A stretch of 28,489 nt of DNA from Bacilli bacterium (GTDB taxonomy: Bacteria > Bacillota_I > Bacilli_A > ML615J-28 > CAG-698). The stretch covers positions 1 through 28,489 of the forward strand of contig JAEEJT010000204.1 of assembly GCA_016282055.1 (NCBI GenBank), given 5' to 3'. Made by a program: the position numbers and the translations under genes. Under the pieces are notes generated by a model. It ran no database searches. It was not told the DNA's origin and saw only the letters and a list, made by a program, of their open reading frames with translations. Position 1 is the stretch's first letter; each line of letters starts with the position of its first letter. Positions 1,442 to 20,459 of the stretch are shown piece by piece.

Positions 1442-3211
1442 ATGAATTATAAAGAAGCTGCAAAAGATTTCTTAGAAAATGAAAAGCAATTTCATTTAGG
1501 AGTTATTCCTACTGAACAATCTAACCCATTAACAAGAAATCTAAGTGCTACAATTCAAAGAAATACAGAAGAAGGAGTTAGCATGATTTTAAGTGCTGAC
1601 GTTAATATTCCTACTGTAGCTGCAAAAGCTGTTAAAACTAAAAATTTCCAAAGATTAGTTGCAGATATTAAGAGAGTAATGTATGAAAATAAACGTGTTG
1701 TTATCTCTAGTGTTGGTGCATCTGGAAGAATGGCTATTCAAATTGATGCTGCTTGGAGATATTTCTGGACTAATTTAGCTACTAAATTACCTGAAAAAGC
1801 TGAAAAGTTCTTATACAACGCTAACCGTGTAGAAAGTTTTACTACTGGTGGAGATAGAGCTCTTGTTAGATCTGTTGAAAACTTTGAAGACTATATGACA
1901 TTTGGTGCTCAACAAGTAAGAGATGCTAATATGGGTCCTGGAGATGTATTATTAGGATTATCTGAATGTGGTTTAAGTGCTAGTATTAATGGTAGTGTTT
2001 GTGAAGCTGATGATTTAGGATGCACAACTTATTACTTACACTGCAATCCAAAAGAGATTTTATACGAACATCTAGAAAGATGCCGTAAAGTATTTGATAG
2101 ACCAAAAGTTATTAAAATGCCTTTATTCGTTGGTAATATGGCTGTTAGTGGTTCTACTCGTATGCAAGTAACTACTGTTGAATTATTAGTAGCTGGTGCT
2201 GCATTAGAACTTGCTTGTAACGAATGGTGTCAAGAAAACTTATCTAAAGAAGAACTTGAAGTTGCTGGTTTAGTTGCTTTAGAAGCTAAAGATTATGCTA
2301 GTGAATTCAAGAAATTAAATAAAGCTTTAGCTACAGGTAAAGGATGCAAAGGTTTAGCTGAATTTATCGAATTAGAAAAGAGTGTTTATGATAAGAAAGG
2401 TTTAATTACTTATTGTACTCATGACTATTTACTTGATATCTTAACTGATACAACTGAACGTCAACCTACATTCACTCTTCCTCCATTCCGTAAGTTCAAT
2501 GATACTAACGCTGAATTAAGCTGGGCTTATGTTAAAGATCCACTATATCCAAACGAAGTTGCATGGCAACATGTATTCCGTCGTCCTATGAAGGGTCTTG
2601 ATTGGACTAAAGAAGATTATATTAGACTTGAAGCAAGTCAAGCTATTATTGACAATCCACCAAGTGTTGGAACTGATGAAGTATGTCAATATAACATTGG
2701 TAATTGTGATGATCCATCTAGATATTCTCGTAAACCAAACTGCTTAGTTTGCTTAGATATCAATGGTAGTGCAACTCCTGAAGTTATGGCTTGGTTCAAA
2801 GAAGAAGTTAAGAAATTTGATAAGGGTGTTGTTGTTCGTATGGGTAATATCGGTAAAGGTAAATTATACGAAAACGAAATCAAGATTCCTGTTAAATTAA
2901 AGAGAACTTCTAACGAGTTATTAACTCACTTAATGGTTAAATTAGCATTCAATACTGTAAGTACTGGTACAATGGCTAAGATGGGAAGAGTTTGGGGTAA
3001 CTGGATGATTCAAGTTTTACCAACAAACAAGAAATTAATTGACCGTTCTACACGTATTATCGCTAATATAGCTGGTATTCCATATGAAGAAGCTCTAGAA
3101 GAATTCTTCAAATCATATCTAGGAAGAGATCCAAAAGAAGAATATCGTGAAAGCTATGTTGTTGAAACATTAAAGCGTTTAGGAAAAGATCCTAGTCAAG
3201 ATTTAAAATAA
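1442..3211 (+). CDS. GKRP/MurQ-family SIS-domain sugar-phosphate-binding protein (589 aa, about twice MurQ length)
   Basis: Motifs PTEQSNPLTRNL, GASGRMA, GGDRALVRSVENFED, SGSTRMQ and the C-terminal KLAFNTVSTGTMAKMGRVWGNWM...TNKKLIDR are characteristic of the MurQ/GKRP family. The MurQ catalytic DASECPPT segment is absent (QIDAAWRYF instead). Confidence 0.75.
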   Translation: MNYKEAAKDFLENEKQFHLGVIPTEQSNPLTRNLSATIQRNTEEGVSMILSADVNIPTVAAKAVKTKNFQRLVADIKRVMYENKRVVISSVGASGRMAIQIDAAWRYFWTNLATKLPEKAEKFLYNANRVESFTTGGDRALVRSVENFEDYMTFGAQQVRDANMGPGDVLLGLSECGLSASINGSVCEADDLGCTTYYLHCNPKEILYEHLERCRKVFDRPKVIKMPLFVGNMAVSGSTRMQVTTVELLVAGAALELACNEWCQENLSKEELEVAGLVALEAKDYASEFKKLNKALATGKGCKGLAEFIELEKSVYDKKGLITYCTHDYLLDILTDTTERQPTFTLPPFRKFNDTNAELSWAYVKDPLYPNEVAWQHVFRRPMKGLDWTKEDYIRLEASQAIIDNPPSVGTDEVCQYNIGNCDDPSRYSRKPNCLVCLDINGSATPEVMAWFKEEVKKFDKGVVVRMGNIGKGKLYENEIKIPVKLKRTSNELLTHLMVKLAFNTVSTGTMAKMGRVWGNWMIQVLPTNKKLIDRSTRIIANIAGIPYEEALEEFFKSYLGRDPKEEYRESYVVETLKRLGKDPSQDLK

Positions 3212-4135: not shown

Positions 4136-5206
4136 ATGATAAAAGCAATTAGTGTTGGAGTTAAGTTATCAAATGTTACTTTTGATAAGTTTAATTCTGA
4201 AATGAATGAATTAACTGAATTATGTAAAGCTTGTGATATTGAAATAGTAGATAGTATATATCAAGAACTTGATTCTTTTAATAGTGAGTTTTATTGTGGT
4301 AGTGGTAAGGTTAGTGAAATTAAAGATAAATCTTTAGAAAATGAAGCAAGTATTATAGTTTTTAATGATGAACTTACACCTAGTCAAATAAGTCATTTAG
4401 ATGAAGCTATTGGCATTACTATTTATGATAGAACATATCTAATTCTTGAAATATTTAAACAAAGAAGTAAAACTAAAGAATCTATTCTTCAAGTGGAACT
4501 TGCTAGTATTTTATATATGAAGCCAAGATTACAAGCATTAATGAATGGATTTGATAGACAAGGTGGAGGTGGTGGAGGCTTACACTCTAAGGGTGAAGGT
4601 GAAACCAAACTTGATCTAAAGAAACGTCTAACAAATGATAGAATACATGCTTTAAAAATAGAACTTGAAAAACTTAAAAAAGTAAGACAAACTCAAAGAA
4701 AAACAAGACATAATAATGAAATAAAGAATGTATGTCTTGTTGGATACACTAATAGTGGAAAATCAACTCTTCTTAATACTTTTTTAAAGATGAGTAAGGA
4801 TTATACAAAAGAAAAAGAAGTTTTTTCTAAGAATATGCTTTTTGCAACTCTTGAAACAAAAGCTCGTCAAGTAACATTAAATCAAAATAGATTTGTATTA
4901 ACTGATACAGTAGGTTTTATAGAAAAATTACCTCATTCTTTAATAGAAGCTTTTAAATCTACGCTTGAAGAAGTTAGTCAAGCAGATTTATTACTTCATG
5001 TAATTGATATATCTAATCCTGATTATCTAAATCAAATGGAAATTACATCTAGTGTATTAAAGGAATTAAAAGCAGATAATATTCCTACTATTAATGTATT
5101 TAATAAGATTGATTTAGTAAATCAATCATATGTTAAAAATGAATACTTTGATAGTATTAGAATTAGTGCTAAAATAATATTAACATTGAATATTTATATC
5201 AAATGA
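4136..5206 (+). CDS. hflX: GTPase HflX, N-terminal and G domains (C-terminal domain separated by a frameshift)
   Basis: GSGKVSEI, LTPSQ, DRTYLILEIF, G1 GYTNSGKS, LFATLE, G3 DTVGF, G4 NKID and G5 ISAK. After ISAK the frame loses similarity. Confidence 0.92.
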   Translation: MIKAISVGVKLSNVTFDKFNSEMNELTELCKACDIEIVDSIYQELDSFNSEFYCGSGKVSEIKDKSLENEASIIVFNDELTPSQISHLDEAIGITIYDRTYLILEIFKQRSKTKESILQVELASILYMKPRLQALMNGFDRQGGGGGGLHSKGEGETKLDLKKRLTNDRIHALKIELEKLKKVRQTQRKTRHNNEIKNVCLVGYTNSGKSTLLNTFLKMSKDYTKEKEVFSKNMLFATLETKARQVTLNQNRFVLTDTVGFIEKLPHSLIEAFKSTLEEVSQADLLLHVIDISNPDYLNQMEITSSVLKELKADNIPTINVFNKIDLVNQSYVKNEYFDSIRISAKIILTLNIYIK

Positions 5207-5406
5207 TATTAAATAAATTATATCAAGATTATGAATTATTAGAATTATTTATTCCATATGATAATAGTAGTATCTTTTATAAATATTACAATGATTTAAT
5301 TATATTAGGTTTAAAAAAGAATGATAATGGATTACTTGTTAAGATAAAAGCGAGTAAGGAGATATCTAATAAACTAAATATATATAAAAATACTGGAAGA
5401 GATTAA
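5203..5406 (+). CDS. hflX: Detached C-terminal domain of HflX (67 aa)
   Basis: ELFIPYD...GLLVKIK resembles the HflX C-terminal domain. Adding one A to AAAA at 5171-5174 fuses it in frame as ISAKNNINIEYLYQMILNKL. Confidence 0.75.
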   Translation: MILNKLYQDYELLELFIPYDNSSIFYKYYNDLIILGLKKNDNGLLVKIKASKEISNKLNIYKNTGRD

Positions 5407-5420: not shown

Positions 5421-6404
5421 AAAATTATCATATAATTCTAATGCTTTGTTATATATTTCTAAAGTGTTATCATAACTAATTATATCTTTTGCTTTTTTAG
5501 CATCAACCCAAATACCACTTGAGAATATATTTTCAAGATGGAATGCTTGTTTTTGATCTAATACATATGCAAAACAATCAATATGTTTTGTTATCATTTC
5601 ATTACCAAATGGATTAAATAATTCATCTTTGTTATATTTAAAATGACTTGTTGAGAATGTATATTGGTAGTTACCACAATTGCCTAGACAGTATGCATTT
5701 TTGATATCTACACCACTTTCTTCAAGGCATTCTCTAATAGACGCATCTTTACTTGTTTCTCCTTTTTCAATGTGTCCTTTTGGAAATACATATTCATTTC
5801 TTAGGGTTTGTAAAAGAAGAACTTGGTTAGAACAAAATACTATAGCAAGACCAGAGTATTCTTGTTTGTTTTGTTTTTTTGATTTTAAAACAAGTTTTTC
5901 TAAGCTCATTTTGCCATCATAAACATCTTTTGGAAAGTCATATTTACACATTGCAAAATCAAGTAATGATAATTTATCTTGTTTGAACTTTTTAATATAT
6001 GCTTGAAATTTATCACATTCTTGTTTTATTAGATAATTTTTCTTATTAGCACCTTTACAATAAAAATAATGATCTGAAGTATTATCTAGTGCAACAAACC
6101 ATTTGTTTGAATATTCATATATAATAAATGAATTACTATCTGTTATTTTTCCATCATTATAATACAATAAATATGATTCGCAATTAATATTATTTTTAAT
6201 AAAAAAATCACGATATATCTCAACGATATCAAATGATAGACCAGTTTTTGATTTTCTTAGGTCATCTGGTGTTTGTAGTTTATAATTTTCATCACATGAT
6301 GCATACTCGTCAAGATGTTTAACCCCATCTTTATCAAAGTATCCAATCTTAATATTATAGACAAACTTAGACAACTCCTTTAACTTTTTTAAGACTTCAA
6401 TCAT
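5403..6404 (-). CDS. NUDIX hydrolase with an N-terminal extra domain (possibly degenerate transglutaminase-like)
   Basis: Complete Nudix box GHIEKGETSKDASIRECLEESG (5777-5712), preceded by YVFPK. RBS GAGGT upstream. About 180 aa of extra N-terminal sequence. Confidence 0.85.
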   Translation of the reverse strand: MIEVLKKLKELSKFVYNIKIGYFDKDGVKHLDEYASCDENYKLQTPDDLRKSKTGLSFDIVEIYRDFFIKNNINCESYLLYYNDGKITDSNSFIIYEYSNKWFVALDNTSDHYFYCKGANKKNYLIKQECDKFQAYIKKFKQDKLSLLDFAMCKYDFPKDVYDGKMSLEKLVLKSKKQNKQEYSGLAIVFCSNQVLLLQTLRNEYVFPKGHIEKGETSKDASIRECLEESGVDIKNAYCLGNCGNYQYTFSTSHFKYNKDELFNPFGNEMITKHIDCFAYVLDQKQAFHLENIFSSGIWVDAKKAKDIISYDNTLEIYNKALELYDNFKTGRD

Positions 6405-6422
6405 GTTTAACCTCTTAAAAAA

Positions 6423-6451
6423 ATATTATCATAAATTAATATATTAGTCAA
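6423..6451 (-). promoter_or_regulatory. SigA promoter for the NUDIX gene
   Basis: On the minus strand: TTGACT (6451-6446), 17-bp spacer, TG-A-TAATAT (-10 at 6428-6423). Confidence 0.5.
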
Positions 6452-6453
6452 TA

Positions 6454-6482
6454 TTAACAAAAAAATAAGAATATGATATAAT
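6454..6482 (+). promoter_or_regulatory. SigA promoter for the helicase-like operon
   Basis: TTAACA (6454-6459), 17-bp spacer, TG-A-TATAAT (-10 at 6477-6482). RBS GAGGT at 6491-6495. Confidence 0.6.
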
Positions 6483-6501
6483 AATTTTAAGAGGTATAAT
6501 T

Positions 6502-9500
6502 ATGAAGGATATTACAGTTAACAATAGAATAGCTAACGAAATTCACTTTAAAAACATATTTTTAAAGAATAGTTATACCGAACTTGGTATAATTGATGTT
6601 GGAGTTTTAGAAAGATTATTAAAGCATGAATTAGTTAAATTTAGTGATATTTATTATTTCCCAATTCTTAATACTGGGTTGGGTCATAGTACAATTAATA
6701 ATGAAGAATTGCAAAAATCAATTCCCTTTTTATTTTTAAAGGAATTAAGTGATAATGATGCTTCAATTCAATTATGTATTACTCATGGATTATTAAAATA
6801 TAAATCAATTGATGAAGATGAAACATTTATGCCTATTGTTTTACTTCCAATTAATATATATTTTGAACGTGAAGATATCTACTGTCAAATGATAGGTAAT
6901 CCTGTTATTAATGAATATATAAGTAATGTAAGTGTAAATGTTAAGTTTAATCAATTACAATCTATTAATATTAAAAGTATTATGGATCTTGATAATGTTT
7001 TATATCAATTAGATAAAATTAATAACATTGAAGTAAAACTTGAAAACTTTTTAACATATGCAACTATTAAAGGAAAAGATATTGTTTTAAACTCTAAATA
7101 TAGTATTAAGAATAGATTATATTATGAGAATAAAAAGATTAATGCTCATTTAAAATATACAAAAGGTTTTTTAAGTAAAGAACAAAATGAAGCATTAGAT
7201 AAACTATTAACAGGAGAAAATCTTGGTATAACAGGTTATAATGGCTGTGGCAAAACAACAGTCGCTGAAAGTTTTATTATTAATGCTGTATGTGATAATA
7301 AAAATGTATTGTACATATCTAATTCACATGAATCTATTAATAGAATGTATAATTTTTTAAAAGACAATAATCTTGAAAAGAATGTTCTTGATTTGAATAA
7401 TTCTTTTTATAAGAATTGTAATAAGGTATATACATATAATAAAGAATTAATATACGATGATGAATTAATTAATGATTATAAGAAGAAAATTAAAGAATTA
7501 GATATCTACTTTGATAATTATGAGAAAACTTTAGGTTATAGTATCAATGATTTTAAGATACTTGATTTAATTAAAAGAAGATTTGTTCTTGATGATGATA
7601 AGTTTAGGCTTGATGAAAATATTATTGATAATGATAAACTTCGTGGGTACTATAAAAATGAGATTGAAGAGATTATATCTCAGATTAAAATAATTGAAGA
7701 TAACTATAATAAGATACCTTCATTTAAAAATAGTACATGGAAAGAAATTCCTTATATTAATAACGTTAATCATGCTAACCAAATTATTACTATTGTTTTA
7801 CAATTAAATACTGGTTTAAAAAAGTTAAAAGAGTATGAAGCATCATTAAATGAATATGGAATGAAAAGCATCCAAAGTTTCTCTGAAATGAGAAAATATA
7901 TTGTTGCGATAAATAATTTAAAAGAGGAAGTTATTCCTTATCAATGGAAAAATAATATTGATTTATTTTATAAAGCTTGTAGTAAATATGAAGAACTTAG
8001 AAATAATATTTTGAAGTATGTTAATACTGATAATTATCTAAATAATAAATATAAAAACTTATTAAGTATTGATATTGATGAAGAGATTAAAAAACTTTAT
8101 GGTAGTTTTTATAAAGAAAGTGACAAGGATTTAATTAATGCAATTATTAAATCACGACCAACATTTAAAAACATTATTGCTTCAATTAATTCTAATCTTT
8201 TGACATTTGATTCTAATTATTTAGATATTAATTTATTAAGTGATTTTGATTTTATCCAAAAAGACGATTATTTTCTTGATGTTAAAAAACTTGTAAAGTT
8301 ATTTAATACATATGATATTAATCATAAGATTATTGAATTATTCCAAAATAATCATATTGGTACAATATCTAAAGATTTAAATAGTTTAAATAAAAAGATA
8401 ACTAATGTATTAAATGATATTAAAGAACTTGAAATTAGTAATCCTAAGTTAAGCAAGATTGACATTGATAAAATAAAAGATATAACTAATGATATTAAAT
8501 CATACATTGAAAAGAAAAAGAAACTTAAACGATTAACTAGAGACTATCGAGAATTAATTGGTTTTAGTTATGAAAATAATACTGATGTAATTAATACTAT
8601 TGAGTTATTAAAAGAATATTATCATGAGATAAAACAAAAATCATATTTTGATAAACTAGTTAAGATAATGAATCTTTGTTTATCTGATTTAACTTTAAAT
8701 GAGTTAAATCTTATTATGTCTAGTTATGATGAAATAATAGTATTTGCAACATTCTTTAATAAGTATGGTTTTGATATTAAGAGTTTCTCTATTAAGAATG
8801 GAATTAGTAAATTAAAAGAATACTTAAAATATTTAGATGAATTATATAAATCTAATGATTGTATTAAATCTTTAATTAATGATTTTAAAGATAGTTATGC
8901 ATACGTTGATGAATACTATAAGATTAAAATGTATAATTCTAATATGATTGAGATGGCTGAAGCATTAAGAAATAACAATGAATTCTATCAATGCTTTGGT
9001 TATCTATATAGTGCTGAAGAAACAAGTATTAGTAATGTAAGTAATGTTATTAAACTATTTAATGAATACATTCATATTTTTAATAGTGACGATGATGCAT
9101 TAAAGAGTTTTAAAGATCTTGGTAAGATTAAGATTATTAGTAGTAATGCTTTTGAATTAATTAACGAGATTATTGAAAACTTACGTTTGTATGGTAATGT
9201 ATTTAAAGATAGTATTAGTAGATACTATTATAGTAATATTAAAGATAATGTTGCTTATTTAAGTAAATTACTTGAAAGTAGAGATGAACTTCAAATATAT
9301 CTTAATATTACTAGAGCTATGACTATATTACATTCTTATAATCTTGATGAGTTTATTGATTATATTGTTAATTTAAGTAATATTAAAGGTGTTAGCAATG
9401 CTTTCTCAAGAAAGTATTATGATTTATTAATAGATGATTTCTTTAGTAAAAATCCTATTGATAATAGTAATGATTATATTAATAAATTAAATGTATATTA

Positions 9501-10656
9501 TTCTATTAATTTAAATTATATTAATAATCTAAATAATAAGATATTAGATAAAAACGTTGATAGAAGTAGTAATATGACTGTTAATTTAAAATATAATAGT
9601 TATAAAGAGTATTTAAGGTATAATAATAGATATAAAGTATTATTATCTAATCAATTATTTGCTGGAATGTACTATAAATACATGGATTACGATATCATCA
9701 TTATTGATGATAGTCATATGATAACTCATGGTGATTTTAATAGTTTATTTAAAAATAAACAGATTGTTGTTTTAGGTGATTATCAAAGTAATAAGATTGT
9801 TAACCAAAACTTGCTTTCTTTGATTAATAATCTTGAGTTTGTTACACTTAAAAATAGATATATAAAAACACCAAGATTATTATCTAATAACCTATCTTAT
9901 GTTATATCTCCTATTCCTTTAGATTACAGTAAGAATAAAGGAATATCTGTATTAACTGAAAAAATAGTTGAAAAGATTTATGATTTATACAAAAATAATA
10001 AAGATGTTCGTATAAATTATTTTATTAAAGATTATAATCATAAGCGTGATACATATGAAAAGATATGTTCATATCTATTAAGTCAAAAGTTAACACCAAA
10101 AGAGATTATTAATTTTATGACTTATAATTTGTTTATTGGTGATATAACTAATAGAAATTATATAGCTAGTGATTTTAATATTCTTTATTTAAGAGATTAT
10201 TGTAATGAGAATAGTCAAATTGTTTCATCAAATCTTTTTGAAATCTTAACGTTAACAAAAGAAGAATTAATTATATATGATTCTAGAAATTATTTAAAAC
10301 AAGATTTTAATTATGATTTCTTTAAACAAATTAAATCAATATGTAATGATAATAATATATTTAAAGGTGAAAGTTATACAAAAGTTGATGAAAAATTAAC
10401 AAGTCTTTTAGAGAAAAGAGGATATGAAATATATTATCCTTCTAATCATTTAAATTTTGTTATTAAAAAACCTAAAGAAAATAAGTTATATCCTTTTGTA
10501 TTATTATTTGATTCTACGTATTTAATTGATGTTAAGAATAATTTTTGTGTATTAAAGAGTCAATATAATTTAGATAAGATAATTGTAAGAACTGTCGTTG
10601 ATTTATTAGATACTAATAAATTAATTGATTCAATATGTGAGGAAATAGATGGCTAG
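6502..10656 (+). CDS. Large DUF4011-type / split SF1 (Upf1-like) helicase-like protein with a degenerate C-terminal restriction-endonuclease-like domain (1384 aa)
   Basis: The N-terminal LCITHGLLKY...MPIVLLPINI...NPVINE resembles DUF4011. Walker A GYNGCGKTT (7234-7260), then a long helical insert, then IIIIDDSHM (Walker B-like, 9691-9720), VVLGDYQ and LKNRY. The C-terminal EKLTSLLEKRGYEI...LNFVI resembles a Vsr/DUF559-like fold. Confidence 0.6.
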   Translation: MKDITVNNRIANEIHFKNIFLKNSYTELGIIDVGVLERLLKHELVKFSDIYYFPILNTGLGHSTINNEELQKSIPFLFLKELSDNDASIQLCITHGLLKYKSIDEDETFMPIVLLPINIYFEREDIYCQMIGNPVINEYISNVSVNVKFNQLQSINIKSIMDLDNVLYQLDKINNIEVKLENFLTYATIKGKDIVLNSKYSIKNRLYYENKKINAHLKYTKGFLSKEQNEALDKLLTGENLGITGYNGCGKTTVAESFIINAVCDNKNVLYISNSHESINRMYNFLKDNNLEKNVLDLNNSFYKNCNKVYTYNKELIYDDELINDYKKKIKELDIYFDNYEKTLGYSINDFKILDLIKRRFVLDDDKFRLDENIIDNDKLRGYYKNEIEEIISQIKIIEDNYNKIPSFKNSTWKEIPYINNVNHANQIITIVLQLNTGLKKLKEYEASLNEYGMKSIQSFSEMRKYIVAINNLKEEVIPYQWKNNIDLFYKACSKYEELRNNILKYVNTDNYLNNKYKNLLSIDIDEEIKKLYGSFYKESDKDLINAIIKSRPTFKNIIASINSNLLTFDSNYLDINLLSDFDFIQKDDYFLDVKKLVKLFNTYDINHKIIELFQNNHIGTISKDLNSLNKKITNVLNDIKELEISNPKLSKIDIDKIKDITNDIKSYIEKKKKLKRLTRDYRELIGFSYENNTDVINTIELLKEYYHEIKQKSYFDKLVKIMNLCLSDLTLNELNLIMSSYDEIIVFATFFNKYGFDIKSFSIKNGISKLKEYLKYLDELYKSNDCIKSLINDFKDSYAYVDEYYKIKMYNSNMIEMAEALRNNNEFYQCFGYLYSAEETSISNVSNVIKLFNEYIHIFNSDDDALKSFKDLGKIKIISSNAFELINEIIENLRLYGNVFKDSISRYYYSNIKDNVAYLSKLLESRDELQIYLNITRAMTILHSYNLDEFIDYIVNLSNIKGVSNAFSRKYYDLLIDDFFSKNPIDNSNDYINKLNVYYSINLNYINNLNNKILDKNVDRSSNMTVNLKYNSYKEYLRYNNRYKVLLSNQLFAGMYYKYMDYDIIIIDDSHMITHGDFNSLFKNKQIVVLGDYQSNKIVNQNLLSLINNLEFVTLKNRYIKTPRLLSNNLSYVISPIPLDYSKNKGISVLTEKIVEKIYDLYKNNKDVRINYFIKDYNHKRDTYEKICSYLLSQKLTPKEIINFMTYNLFIGDITNRNYIASDFNILYLRDYCNENSQIVSSNLFEILTLTKEELIIYDSRNYLKQDFNYDFFKQIKSICNDNNIFKGESYTKVDEKLTSLLEKRGYEIYYPSNHLNFVIKKPKENKLYPFVLLFDSTYLIDVKNNFCVLKSQYNLDKIIVRTVVDLLDTNKLIDSICEEIDG

Positions 10657-11200
10657 AAGTGATAAGAGTGAAATGATTGCTTTTATGAAAGCAATAAAAG
10701 AGAATCCCCAAAGATATTACTTTATCCAATCTAATATTACAAATCTTAAAAATAAAGGTATAGATATATCAACACAAGGTCATAGTGGGAATACTTTATT
10801 ACATCTTGCTATTCAACTTGATAATATTAAATTACTTAGAATGTTTATTAAAAATAATGTTAATTGTGATTTAGCAAATGATCAAGGAGAAGCACCTATT
10901 CATAAAGCTATTTTAAAAGGTAGACTTGATATGATTAAAGTCCTTGTTAAAGCTGGATGTGATGTTAATGCATTAAAAGAGTTAGATGAATCTCCTTTAC
11001 ATGTGGCAGTTATCTCTGGTAGACTTGATATATTAAAATATCTTGTTGAAAGTGGAAGTGATATATTAATTGCTAATGAGAATAATTTACTTCCAATTGA
11101 TTATGCAATTGATGAAAAAGATAAAGATATGATATCTTATTTAATGGTTCGTCAAGAAATTGATGAAAAGAGATATGAAAAGATAAATGCAATATTGTGA
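10649..11200 (+). CDS. Ankyrin-repeat protein (3-4 repeats)
   Basis: GNTLLHLAI, GEAPIHKAILKGRLDMIKVLVKAGCDVN, DESPLHVAVISGRLDILKYLVESGSDI and NLLPIDYA. The start overlaps the upstream stop by 8 nt. Confidence 0.92.
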   Translation: MARSDKSEMIAFMKAIKENPQRYYFIQSNITNLKNKGIDISTQGHSGNTLLHLAIQLDNIKLLRMFIKNNVNCDLANDQGEAPIHKAILKGRLDMIKVLVKAGCDVNALKELDESPLHVAVISGRLDILKYLVESGSDILIANENNLLPIDYAIDEKDKDMISYLMVRQEIDEKRYEKINAIL

Positions 11201-11207
11201 GGTATGT

Positions 11208-12005
11208 ATGGAAAAGTTTATTGAATATTTTAAGAATTACTATAATGTTAGTCCGACAACAGGAATTATACGATTAATATTTGATTTATTAATTGTTATA
11301 GCATTATTAATAATATTCTTTGTCTTGATTAGAAAAAGAGTTAATATAAAAAGATTTTTACTTGGTGTATTAGTTTTAGTTATTTTAAGTTTCTTATCAA
11401 TTCTTTTTGATTTAAAGATATTAAATTCAGTAATGAAAAACTTAAGTCACTGGTCTGTTGGTTTTATTATTCTTTTATATTTTCCTGAGATTAAAGCTAG
11501 TCTTGATGGTAAATCAAATAAGGATAATAAAGATAGTGCATTTGATTCTATTGAACAAAAAGAAGAGACTATTAATGTTATATGTAATACTGTCGAGTAT
11601 TTTTCAAAAAGAAAAATTGGAGCTTTAATTACATTTGAAAGAAAAGATTCTTTAGATTCTTTAATTGAAAAAGCTATTCCAATTAACGCTGATATTACTC
11701 AAGAAATCCTAACAACAATATTTACACCAGGTACAGCTTGTCATGATGGTGGATTAATTATTAGAAATAATAAAATAGTATGCGCAGCAAGCTACTATCC
11801 ATTAACAGATAATTATGATGTTCCCAAGTTTTTAGGTACTCGTCATAGAGCTGCTATTGGTATTAGTGAAAAGTATGATGCCATTACAATTGTTGTAAGT
11901 GAAGAGACTGGTAATGTTAGTATAACAGTTGCTGGTAATATTAGTTTAGAGTTACCAATTGAAAGAGTAAGAACTTTACTTGATGGTTATTTAGCTACAA
12001 AATAG
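11208..12005 (+). CDS. cdaA: Membrane-anchored diadenylate cyclase (c-di-AMP synthase)
   Basis: Three N-terminal hydrophobic helices, IGALITFER, catalytic HDGG (DGA-like) and GTRHRAAIG, VVSEETG. Start placed at ATG 11208 (GAGGT at 11199-11203) rather than 11187. Confidence 0.92.
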   Translation: MEKFIEYFKNYYNVSPTTGIIRLIFDLLIVIALLIIFFVLIRKRVNIKRFLLGVLVLVILSFLSILFDLKILNSVMKNLSHWSVGFIILLYFPEIKASLDGKSNKDNKDSAFDSIEQKEETINVICNTVEYFSKRKIGALITFERKDSLDSLIEKAIPINADITQEILTTIFTPGTACHDGGLIIRNNKIVCAASYYPLTDNYDVPKFLGTRHRAAIGISEKYDAITIVVSEETGNVSITVAGNISLELPIERVRTLLDGYLATK

Positions 12006-12033
12006 AAGAAGTTTATTGGGAGACTTTTTTGAA

Positions 12034-12483
12034 ATGACATTATGGATAAGAAGATGGAATAATAAAATTTTTGATTTAGTCGGGGCATATAATAATAAGG
12101 AGAATAAATCCGAAGTAGAGTGAAATCAATATAATCATTATGACGAAAATGATATTGTTTTCATCTATGATACACAAAATAAATTTGTTAGATATATTTT
12201 TCAGGTAACAAAGGTTGACATTACATCTGAACATTTAAAAAATAATATTCGTGATGGCTTAAAATACTGGATAGATAAAAAATCATATTATGAAAGAAAA
12301 AGAAAAAACAGATGGGTTATGTTAAAAAAAATCTATGAAATAAAAGCTCAAATTACTTTAGATAAAATAGGAATTAATAAATATTTTGTTAGATGTACAC
12401 GATTAAATAAAGAAAACCAAGATAAATTGAAAATTCTTGCTCCAGGAATCTTTGATTTTCTCAAAACTAAGAATTATTTGTAA
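12034..12483 (+). pseudogene. EVE/PUA-like domain gene (149 codons) interrupted by one in-frame TGA at 12121-12123
   Basis: Manual translation: MTLWIRRWNNKIFDLVGAYNNKENKSEVE*NQYNHYDENDIVFIYDTQNKFVRYIFQVTKVDITSEHLKNNIRDGLKYWIDKKSYYERKRKNRWVMLKKIYEIKAQITLDKIGINKYFVRCTRLNKENQDKLKILAPGIFDFLKTKNYL*. GGGAG lies upstream and a terminator follows the stop directly. The W..N...FD..GA....W.Q....DIV(F/Y)IY pattern is recalled from EVE-like N-terminal domains of HNH proteins. Confidence 0.7.
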
Positions 12484-12506
12484 GACTAGGTTACTAGTCT
12501 TTTTTT
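12482..12506 (+). terminator. Intrinsic terminator
   Basis: Stem AAGACTAG / CTAGTCTT with a GTTA loop, then a T-run to 12506. It overlaps the TAA at 12481-12483. Confidence 0.85.
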
Positions 12507-12571
12507 GTTTATTAGTAATTACAATTGTATATGTAATTTTATTTATAATTCTTTTATAATAGTTAATATTG

Positions 12572-12580
12572 TGCTATAAT
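12572..12580 (+). promoter_or_regulatory. Extended -10 promoter
   Basis: TG-C-TATAAT. RBS AAGGAG at 12596-12601 precedes ATG 12608. Confidence 0.6.
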
Positions 12581-12607
12581 ATAAGTAATGTTTATAAGGA
12601 GTTTATT

Positions 12608-14128
12608 ATGATTGGTTACATTAAAACTTTTGAAGTATCATTTATTTTATATGCATTATTATTATCTATAATTTGTTTATTTAGATATAAAAAAGGAATG
12701 CAAATATTTTCTTTTGTTTTTATTTTATTAATTTGTTGTTGTTTAGGATTAAATAAGTATTTAAATCTTGATTATTTTGGATTCAGTAAAATACTTGATT
12801 ATAAGTTAGAACTATGGCTTGATTGTTTAGTCTCTCTTATTATTTTATTTAATGTTATTTTTACATCTAGTAATAAAGAGAAATTATATAAACAAGCTAG
12901 TGAAGCATTAGATAAGAATGCTTATGTTTATTTAAATAAAAAAGGTAAAGTATTAAATTATACAGAATCTTTTTATACAACAATTAATTGTTATAAGAAG
13001 AATTGGTATAAAAAAGCAAGCTTCTTTTATAATAATACTAGTGTAAGTTATAGTGATTTATTAAGTAGTATTAAAGATACTGATGATGTTAGTTTTAAAG
13101 TTACTATTGTTTTAAAGAGTGATTTAGGTGATAGTGAATATAATTTTAATTTTCAAAAGCTTGTTATTGAAAAGGATAATAAAGTATTAGGTTATGCATT
13201 AGTTAATGCTAAGGTTAATACAACATTAGATGGATTTAGTCTAGTTATTGATAATTTAGATGTTCCTTATGCATATTATAATGATTCAAGTAGTAACATA
13301 ATTTATGTTATTAATAAGAGACTTAAAGAACTTTTAAATGTTCAAGGTAGAACTCTTACTATTAATGAGTTAAGAGAACTTGTATTTAAAGATGATTTAC
13401 AAGTATTTGATACATCAATTAATGATATGATGTCTAATTCATTCAGTTTTAGATTAAATACTGTTGATGGTTTTAAGATGTTTAATCAATATAAGATTAT
13501 AAAGAATGAGAATTTAATTTCTATTATTTCTTTAGTTGATGACAAGAATGATCTTGTTACAACTAAAAATACTATTAGTGAATGTATCAATAACAATATT
13601 AGTACTAATAAACCTTTTGGCGGTGTTATTGTTAGTTTAAATGGTTACCTTGATTTATTTAATAATAATGGTGGAGTTGTTGCTAAAGAACTTACTAATA
13701 GATTCGTTGATTACTGTACACATAGTATTTTAAAATCTAATGATTTAATTTGTAAGATTAGTGATATTGAATATTTATTATTCTTTAATGATATGAATAA
13801 TCTTGATTTAGTAGTTAGAGATATATGTAATAAAACTAGTAATTTATTAAAGTATTCATTTAACTTTGATGAAGCCACATATGAATCTAAAAATACTATT
13901 GGTATTGTTTATTCTGATGAATCTGTTAAAAACGAAAAAGATTTCTATTCTAATTTAGATATGGCATTATCATTTGCTAATTCTAATAGTTATGCTAATG
14001 ATTATAGTATTTTCCAATCTAATATGACTATGAATAGTAAGATTAGTAAAATTATTAAAAAAGAAGATTATTCTTTTGATAACATTAGAATTAGTCTTGA
14101 TAATAGTTTCTTAGATGAAGATGAGTAA
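12608..14128 (+). CDS. Membrane protein with PAS-like region(s) and a degenerate GGDEF domain
   Basis: Three N-terminal TM segments, then AYVYLNKKGKVLNYTESF (PAS-like). The C-terminal GVIVSLNGYLDLFNNNGGVVAKEL...DLICKISDIEYLLFF...TIGIVY...LDMALSFAN follows the GGDEF fold pattern with SDIEY in place of GGDEF. Confidence 0.65.
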   Translation: MIGYIKTFEVSFILYALLLSIICLFRYKKGMQIFSFVFILLICCCLGLNKYLNLDYFGFSKILDYKLELWLDCLVSLIILFNVIFTSSNKEKLYKQASEALDKNAYVYLNKKGKVLNYTESFYTTINCYKKNWYKKASFFYNNTSVSYSDLLSSIKDTDDVSFKVTIVLKSDLGDSEYNFNFQKLVIEKDNKVLGYALVNAKVNTTLDGFSLVIDNLDVPYAYYNDSSSNIIYVINKRLKELLNVQGRTLTINELRELVFKDDLQVFDTSINDMMSNSFSFRLNTVDGFKMFNQYKIIKNENLISIISLVDDKNDLVTTKNTISECINNNISTNKPFGGVIVSLNGYLDLFNNNGGVVAKELTNRFVDYCTHSILKSNDLICKISDIEYLLFFNDMNNLDLVVRDICNKTSNLLKYSFNFDEATYESKNTIGIVYSDESVKNEKDFYSNLDMALSFANSNSYANDYSIFQSNMTMNSKISKIIKKEDYSFDNIRISLDNSFLDEDE

Positions 14129-19122: not shown

Positions 19123-19151
19123 ATAGTAGTTGTTATACATTGGAGGATAAT

Positions 19152-20459
19152 ATGAAGAAAAGATTAATAGGTTTTCTAGTAATTATATTATGTGCATTTG
19201 TACTTGTTGGCTGTGGCAAAGGTAATTCATACAAAGTATGGAGTAATTATGTCAAAGCTGTTAATAAAGGCAATATTACACAAGTTGCTGAAACTTTCTA
19301 TGATAAGAAGACTGAAGCTACTAACTATGAAACATTTATTTCAGATAATACTTATCTTAATGATTTAAAGAAAGTTAAGACTTTAAAGTATGAAGAAGAT
19401 ATTTGCTGTGATTTTTCTAGTCAAACTATGAGAGTTGCATATTATCATGCCAATGTTGAGGCTGAGATTACAACAACATCTGGAAAAGAAAAAGGAAGTT
19501 TTGAATTATACTATTATGAAAATGCTAATGGTATATTCTTCTGTACTCCAGTTGAATTAGTTGATTCTAATAATCTTGGTAATAAGAGTAATACATATTA
19601 TGATCAAAAAGTATATATGACAGAAAAAGATTATAGTTATCGTGAAGAAGAAGATAAAGTAATTTACATTTCTCAAAACAATAATGTAAAAGATTTAGTT
19701 ATTCCTGAAACTATTAATAATAAACCTGTTACTGAAATTGCTGAATATGCATGCTTTAAATATAATAAGATTTTATGTTTTACACTTAGAAGTAGTAAAA
19801 TGACTAGTGTAAAAATTCCTGCAACTGTTGAAACTATTGGTAAATATGCTTTCTATCAATGTGTTAAACTTCAAAGTCTAGATATTCCATCTTCTGTTAA
19901 TTATATTGATAGAATGGCATTTTCTGGATGCAAGAGTATTAAAGAAGTTGTATTTGAACATGAAACAAATAATGTAAGTTATGATATTATTCCTAGTGTT
20001 TCTACTGGTGTTATTAATATTAATAATGCTAGAAACTTACTTGTTGGTGATATTATGATATTAACTACAGATGATGATTCTATAGTATTAGAATGGAGTG
20101 TAAGTGATACAGGTGTTGCATCAATTGATGCTTCTACTGGTAAACTTACAGCAAGAAATGCTGGAACTGTTACTATTACAGCTTGTCAAAAGACAAATCC
20201 TAATAATAATTGTCAAGTTACTATTACAGTATCAACTCCAGATGTTTTATGTAAGATATCTAGTGATGCTTTTAATAGACTTGATAAGTTAGAAAAATTA
20301 ACATTAAAAGCAACAAACCCAACAACCATTAAAATTGATGGTTCTGTTTCTTTTGCATTAAATAAAACTTGTAAGATTTATATTCCTAAAGGAAGTATGG
20401 ATTCTTATCTTGCAAGTGATGCTTGGAAAGCATATGCAGGTCAACTTGTTGAATATTAA
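19152..20459 (+). CDS. Surface lipoprotein with BspA-type leucine-rich repeats (LRR_5) and a bacterial Ig-like (Big_2) domain
   Basis: Lipobox VLVGC. LRR units DLVIPETI..VTEIAEYAC, SVKIPATVETIGKYAF and SLDIPSSVNYIDRMAF. Ig segment LEWSVSDTGVASID..GKLTARNAGTVTITA. Confidence 0.85.
   Translation: MKKRLIGFLVIILCAFVLVGCGKGNSYKVWSNYVKAVNKGNITQVAETFYDKKTEATNYETFISDNTYLNDLKKVKTLKYEEDICCDFSSQTMRVAYYHANVEAEITTTSGKEKGSFELYYYENANGIFFCTPVELVDSNNLGNKSNTYYDQKVYMTEKDYSYREEEDKVIYISQNNNVKDLVIPETINNKPVTEIAEYACFKYNKILCFTLRSSKMTSVKIPATVETIGKYAFYQCVKLQSLDIPSSVNYIDRMAFSGCKSIKEVVFEHETNNVSYDIIPSVSTGVININNARNLLVGDIMILTTDDDSIVLEWSVSDTGVASIDASTGKLTARNAGTVTITACQKTNPNNNCQVTITVSTPDVLCKISSDAFNRLDKLEKLTLKATNPTTIKIDGSVSFALNKTCKIYIPKGSMDSYLASDAWKAYAGQLVEY

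Follow-up and report, generated by a model that had tools for sequence, protein, structure and literature searches.

A helicase-like protein and an ankyrin-repeat protein encoded with the diadenylate cyclase CdaA in Acholeplasma-like bacteria

Cyclic di-AMP (c-di-AMP) is essential or near-essential in many Bacillota, and the enzyme that makes it is known to be controlled by CdaR and GlmM or, where that enzyme is DisA, by RadA. In the cdaA-cdaR-glmM operon of Bacillota, the cyclase CdaA (also DacA) is encoded with its regulators CdaR and GlmM (PMC8573169, PMC6368335), and in the clpC-radA-disA operon of Bacillus subtilis the ATPase RadA is encoded beside another cyclase, DisA (PMC8957991). Here, a cdaA gene with different neighbours is described from a 28.5-kb stretch of DNA (the window), which is the entire contig C26 of a 1.33-Mb metagenome-assembled genome (MAG) of a Bacilli bacterium. 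The MAG comprises 214 contigs with 26% GC, and has an estimated completeness of 84% and contamination of 5.3%. Of the sequencing runs that contain this DNA, the best is from an animal gut metagenome, and no RNA run is among them. The cyclase gene follows a gene for a large helicase-like protein, here called BIG, and a gene for an ankyrin-repeat protein, Ank (lengths in amino acids, aa):

6502..10656, + strand: BIG, 1384-aa superfamily 1B (SF1B, Upf1-like) helicase-like protein (profiles, AlphaFold2 (AF2) model, Foldseek, motif alignments)
10649..11200, + strand: ank, 183-aa cytoplasmic ankyrin-repeat protein (Pfam, orthologue alignment, position)
11208..12005 (alternative start 11187), + strand: cdaA, diadenylate cyclase, a putative membrane protein (TIGR00159, PF02457)

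These three genes are an invariant, translationally coupled core around the only diadenylate cyclase (DAC) of the cell. The interpretation favoured here, in which we place about even confidence, is that the locus is the core operon for c-di-AMP synthesis, specific to the lineage of wall-less, Acholeplasma-like bacteria, with Ank and BIG as the CdaA partners of the clade.

Conservation of the block and loss of the canonical partners

The locus was compared with those of 40 related genomes from 27 genera, in two families of one order (41 genomes including this MAG). The named relatives that share this locus go under Acholeplasmatales, Acholeplasma, Mollicutes, Tenericutes, Bacilli or 'Coprobacillus sp. 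CAG:698'. BIG is single-copy in all 41 genomes, at 22-40% identity across the 40 relatives, and a single cdaA lies at most about 1 kb downstream of it in every one (41/41). The ank gene is found between the two in 39 of the 41. Adjacency across related genera, which an earlier reading of this DNA made from the sequence alone (the sequence-only reading) had named as the test of its proposed unit, is strongly borne out by these genomes and also by a third family belonging to another order, in which full-length Ank orthologues again sit between BIG and cdaA (profile search of 300 genomes of the class).

When the three families are reduced to 45 non-redundant loci, 43 have the order BIG-ank-cdaA, among them two in which a gene is split, and the other two have BIG-cdaA; the block is never interrupted. 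Its immediate neighbours vary. Upstream there is a clpC-like AAA+ gene in 18 loci, a divergent ribonucleotide reductase gene in 11, and other genes in the rest, while the downstream neighbour is mgsA in 20, a gene here called U519 in 11, and others in the rest. The junctions within the block are tight, with median gaps of -8 nucleotides (nt) from BIG to ank and +1 nt from ank to cdaA, and this spacing is kept at protein identities down to 13-30%.

Each of the 40 relatives has one DAC gene only, the cdaA of the BIG-ank-cdaA block. No YbbR (CdaR) protein is found in any of them (0/40), and GlmM has no match above cut-off in the same set. RadA (TIGR00416) has no match above cut-off in any of the 41 genomes, the RadA matches in the relatives being Lon C-termini only, and DisA (NF010009) gives no match in either of two genome samples, 121 from the class and 119 from the phylum. 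In the 84%-complete MAG, the DarA/PstA and PgpH families are not found, an observation from which nothing is concluded.

The absence of CdaR and GlmM, claimed by the sequence-only reading, thus holds at the locus and in the 40 relatives, but the MAG itself carries traces of both. Contig C214 (5478-7629) has a canonical cdaA-cdaR pair, with three YbbR domains and a CdaA 38% identical to that of the window, and contig C46 (3-425) has a glmM-like fragment. These are probably contamination from walled Bacillota; the C214 pair is taken as such because no relative has a pair of this kind. Contig C205 (3-6653) carries a second syntenic locus that lacks ank: a BIG gene truncated at the 5' end is followed by cdaA, a 528-aa gene, a U519-like gene and ispD. 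Here 2 nt separate the stop of BIG from the start of cdaA, and the genes of this locus are 38-60% identical to those of the window and closest to the lineage of genome G005. Its probable source is another, related organism binned with this one. The C214 pair and the C46 fragment, and more generally the probably contaminating cdaA loci of this MAG, could mislead the annotation of c-di-AMP genes.

The three conserved proteins

CdaA is recognised by the NCBIfam equivalog TIGR00159 (195.7 bits, cut-off 188.8) and carries a full DAC domain (PF02457, E = 5.1e-38, 129.8 bits), whereas the DisA model gives 25 bits. The catalytic RHR motif does not vary among 27 orthologues, and the DGA motif of the DAC domain (CdaA residues 186-188, positions 11742-11750) is DGG in this genome and its genus, and DGA in all other aligned families. 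Three hydrophobic stretches were judged by eye between residues 27 and 105.

Ank is matched by Ank_4 (1.8e-26) and Ank_2 (1.3e-21), and by Ank and Ank_3 in three stretches each. It has 3-4 ankyrin repeats; conserved features are a helix cap at the N-terminus and the motif PIDYAIDE close to the C-terminus. Its orthologues align at 30-57% identity. A prediction of the complex of Ank with CdaA residues 105-272 scored 0.00, which is no answer and evidence for neither side.

BIG is more divergent. A word-based homologue search finds six relatives besides the query, and by sequence the window protein has only weak P-loop matches, plus a weak match to DUF4011 (E = 0.17). Among 21 orthologues, matches are to DEAD (20/21), AAA_30 (13/21), AAA_11 (8/21) and, at E up to 0.01, DUF4011 (3/21). 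Searched against the PDB, the family profile finds IGHMBP2, SEN1, DNA2 and Aquarius. Modelled with AF2 from 44 sequences, residues 185-1384 (predicted local distance difference test score (pLDDT) 84.5) form two RecA-like alpha/beta domains and a small alpha/beta tail, with Walker A set apart from Walker B by a helical insertion of some 750 residues; the best Foldseek matches of this model are SETX, UPF1, Aquarius, IGHMBP2 and DNA2. When the C-terminal domain is modelled alone (pLDDT 87), the tail resembles I-Bth0305I, NGO0050 (DUF559-like) and Vsr with Z scores of 8.6-7.8, a moderate level of similarity, and a Foldseek search of this domain against the PDB returns nothing at E up to 0.001.

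Conservation of BIG within the order is confined to the Q motif (Q228), Walker A and the first Walker B aspartate, D1069. Walker A is invariant, while Walker B decays in the third family. In the alignments, neither an arginine finger nor, in the second RecA-like domain, a motif V/VI signature is conserved; the tail has no conserved nuclease catalytic residues, and none of its columns reaches 90% conservation across the 44 sequences. The sequence-only reading had taken the helicase-like gene to be degenerate, and the decay of these motifs agrees with it. A fair reading of the alignments is that BIG is a pseudo-helicase with a dead nuclease tail.

The block and its surroundings in the window

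Around the three genes, the following features are found in the window:

6454..6482, + strand: sigma-70-like promoter candidate with extended -10, ahead of BIG (consensus match only)
12034..12483, + strand: ORF4, a solitary EVE-like gene with an internal TGA (remote homologues, language-model features)
12482..12511 (hairpin 12482-12501), + strand: intrinsic-terminator-like hairpin and T-run (prediction)
12569..14128, + strand: U519, downstream neighbour, a membrane protein with PAS and degenerate GGDEF domains (profile matches)

The sequence-only reading had described a four-gene unit with one promoter, tight spacing and one terminator. The spacing is confirmed throughout. The end of BIG (10656) and the start of ank (10649) overlap by 8 nt; the ank stop codon (TGA, 11198-11200) lies inside a Shine-Dalgarno-like GTGAGGT, 7 nt 5' of the cdaA ATG at 11208, with an in-frame ATG at 11187 as a possible alternative start; and 28 nt separate the cdaA stop (12005) from the ORF4 start (12034). 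The terminator also stands, as the hairpin at 12482-12501 with its T-run is the only one of its kind predicted within 5500-13500 (0.6 expected). The promoter candidate (TTAACA, 17 nt, TGnTATAAT; 11/12 matches) is indeed the top site within 5500-13500, but promoter-like sites in this AT-rich region are not above shuffled sequences (80 found, 86.6 expected). In close relatives, a clpC-like gene occupies its spot. What fails is the number of genes, since three are conserved and the EVE-like open reading frame (ORF) is unique to this genome and interrupted by a stop.

The frame of ORF4 is not intact as sequenced, with a premature TGA at codon 30 (12121-12123). ORF4 itself has no Pfam match, and a word-based search with it finds only itself. 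An exhaustive phmmer search finds 13 remote homologues, which share 31-39% identity with ORF4 across some 100 residues; this stretch includes the TGA, which aligns with an invariant Trp of the homologues. Several of these homologues carry PF01878 (EVE), one above cut-off (P0023, 31.2 bits against 23), and most are fused to HNH; language-model features likewise score ORF4 at 0.96 to 'EVE' clusters. The EVE-like reader of the sequence-only reading is therefore EVE-like through its remote homologues, but its frame is broken and no relative has it. Genetic code 4, in which TGA encodes Trp, was considered as an explanation of the internal TGA and ruled out. In-frame TGA occurs only in the final few codons of 25 window ORFs, with ORF4 as the sole exception, and genome-wide ORF coverage rises only from 70.6% to 74.1% when TGA is read as sense. 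Since TGA terminates the window ORFs and code 4 adds little ORF coverage, TGA is a stop codon in this MAG. ORF4 is thus an EVE-like gene standing alone, in which TGG has apparently become TGA. It may be a pseudogene, or the change may be an error at a place with a depth of about 3x, where the contigs assembled from the reads leave 11906-12127, and with it the TGA, uncovered.

ORF4 is absent from all related loci compared. In many other genera its position holds a gene of 117-123 aa, read by eye as methylglyoxal synthase (mgsA) from its sequence signature; this small ORF was considered as an ORF4 homologue and rejected, as it is unrelated to ORF4. ORF4 is a later, strain-specific insertion outside the conserved unit.

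U519 lies downstream in most loci. GGDEF structures are matched by profile at 2.7e-7, and PF00990 is found in 8 of 18 orthologues and PAS_3 in 5 of 18. In the window copy the GGDEF signature is replaced by SDIEY. U519, a putative member of the unit, may add another nucleotide-signalling component to the block.

The window differs from its relatives in having no clpC-like gene and no mgsA, and in the broken EVE-like gene inserted after cdaA. The clpC-like AAA+ gene (546-551 aa) that precedes BIG in relatives of the same genus is missing from 6405-6501, and the BIG start is 97 nt from a divergent NUDIX gene. The sole clpC-like counterpart in the MAG is a 714-aa paralogue on contig C40, 40% identical. 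Elsewhere in the window, the frame of an HflX-like GTPase (4136-5406) runs into a TGA (5204-5206), and the ATG of a 67-aa ORF overlaps this stop, so that hflX looks split or frameshifted. A 589-aa protein with an N-terminal SIS domain and, at its C-terminus, a lid of the glucokinase-regulatory-protein type is encoded at 1442-3211, directly 5' of a PfkB kinase gene. The 439-aa product of 19140-20459 combines BspA-type leucine-rich repeats with a Big_2 domain and is likely a surface protein.

Possible roles and comparison with known systems

If BIG and Ank are the CdaA partners of the clade, BIG would be an ATP-binding sensor or scaffold, probably binding nucleic acid, and not a processive helicase. 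Ank would act as a protein-protein adaptor made in a fixed ratio with its neighbours, and together they might modulate the cytoplasmic DAC domain of CdaA. They may in this way take over the role of GlmM and CdaR in walled Bacillota, in a manner that would recall RadA and DisA, where an ATPase that handles DNA is paired with a cyclase. A more specific version, which we regard as tentative, is that the clade controls its essential CdaA through a dedicated complex of a new kind, in which a catalytically decayed Upf1-like helicase with a dead Vsr-like nuclease tail senses nucleic-acid or ATP status and switches CdaA via Ank. Two control circuits, CdaR/GlmM and RadA/DisA, would thereby have been replaced in evolution at what was once the clpC-radA-disA locus.

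Several observations weigh against a regulatory partnership. The evidence is gene order within one clade, where the order is vertically inherited and the genomes are not independent observations, and distant BIG-like proteins outside the three families in no case adjoin cdaA. Loss of ank has occurred at least three times (genomes G021 and G032, and contig C205) with BIG and cdaA still adjacent, and ank is therefore dispensable in some lineages. The adaptor role that the sequence-only reading gave to the ankyrin protein, for which gene order is the one argument, is weakened by these losses. The functionally unrelated mgsA, ispD, ispF and nifU are also largely syntenic. The single clade, the losses of ank and the conservation of most of the wider block (the four genes just named, the clpC-like gene and U519) would fit a trio of co-transcribed housekeeping genes with no functional link, kept together by inherited order and compact packing in small genomes. 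We consider this explanation possible, though doubtful: gene order on either side has changed repeatedly, yet none of the 45 loci has an interruption within the trio; the genes still overlap at their junctions where the proteins are only 13-30% identical; and every known CdaA and DisA partner has been lost from the lineage.

The tightest junction of the block is the overlap of BIG with ank (median -8 nt), and BIG combines an SF1B helicase fold with a Vsr-like tail, as might be expected if BIG and Ank act in nucleic-acid metabolism, for example in RNA or DNA surveillance, with cdaA merely riding on the operon. This is improbable, as BIG adjoins cdaA even where ank has been lost, and its helicase and nuclease motifs have decayed. 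Least probable of all is an anti-phage or nucleic-acid-sensing defence module. The sequence-only reading suggested a defence module as one possibility; it would consist here of a sensor resembling Hhe, c-di-AMP as the signal and an EVE reader. When PADLOC models are run against the BIG orthologues, the candidate PDC-S37 matches 19 of 21 and Hhe, annotated as a DUF4011 protein (PMC11232893), one of 21, and the ORF4 homologues are EVE-HNH proteins. However, PADLOC gives no match for CdaA, ORF4 or U519, the EVE ORF is found in this genome only, where it is stop-interrupted, and conservation of BIG does not extend to its catalytic motifs. The three genes of the trio behave as core genes, present once in every genome searched and with identity that tracks taxonomy, and cdaA is the only DAC gene. 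A defence role is thus very unlikely, because the trio is a single-copy, vertically inherited core set without an effector gene in the block.

The interpretation of BIG and Ank as CdaA partners would have consequences beyond this locus. A clade of gut, digester and environmental wall-less bacteria without CdaR, GlmM, RadA or DisA keeps two unexplained proteins welded to cdaA; if these are regulators, they would represent a new way to control a key second messenger, and a defence-type helicase-nuclease scaffold domesticated into a housekeeping sensor. A literature search found no paper that, in the sense meant here, connects ankyrin proteins to a diadenylate cyclase or Acholeplasma to c-di-AMP.

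Among known systems, CBASS-like cyclic-nucleotide anti-phage systems differ from the block in that its genes have a core-gene distribution and include no effector. ORF4 aligns over about 100 residues with the EVE-like N-terminal domain of EVE-HNH modification-dependent nuclease-like proteins (PF01878 + PF01844), but lacks HNH, has a nonsense codon at the invariant Trp and has no direct Pfam match. BIG resembles the DUF4011/Upf1-like SF1B helicase-nucleases (Hhe, PDC-S37) in its putative, weakly DUF4011-like N-terminus, SF1B core and Vsr/DUF559-like tail. It differs from them in the helical insertion of about 750 aa, in motifs V/VI and nuclease residues that are not conserved, and in being a single-copy core gene, not an accessory island gene; the Hhe hidden Markov model matches 1/21 orthologues.

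The likeness to the clpC-radA-disA operon is positional and functional only, there being no homology beyond the P-loop and the DAC domain. In both, a gene for a P-loop ATPase of DNA-handling type lies upstream of a diadenylate cyclase gene, and a clpC-like gene lies further upstream, in 18 loci here. The genes ispD-ispF are downstream here, and presumably also downstream of disA in Bacillus. In this block, by contrast, the cyclase is of the CdaA type with putative transmembrane helices, not DisA, and ank is inserted between the two genes. The neighbours of cdaA are unrelated to the CdaR (YbbR) and GlmM of the cdaA-cdaR-glmM operon, neither of which is in the window, and are upstream, not downstream, of the cyclase gene. 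In both operons a cyclase of the CdaA type, here a putative membrane protein, is tightly packed with two non-enzymatic neighbours, one of which is cytoplasmic and could reach the DAC domain.

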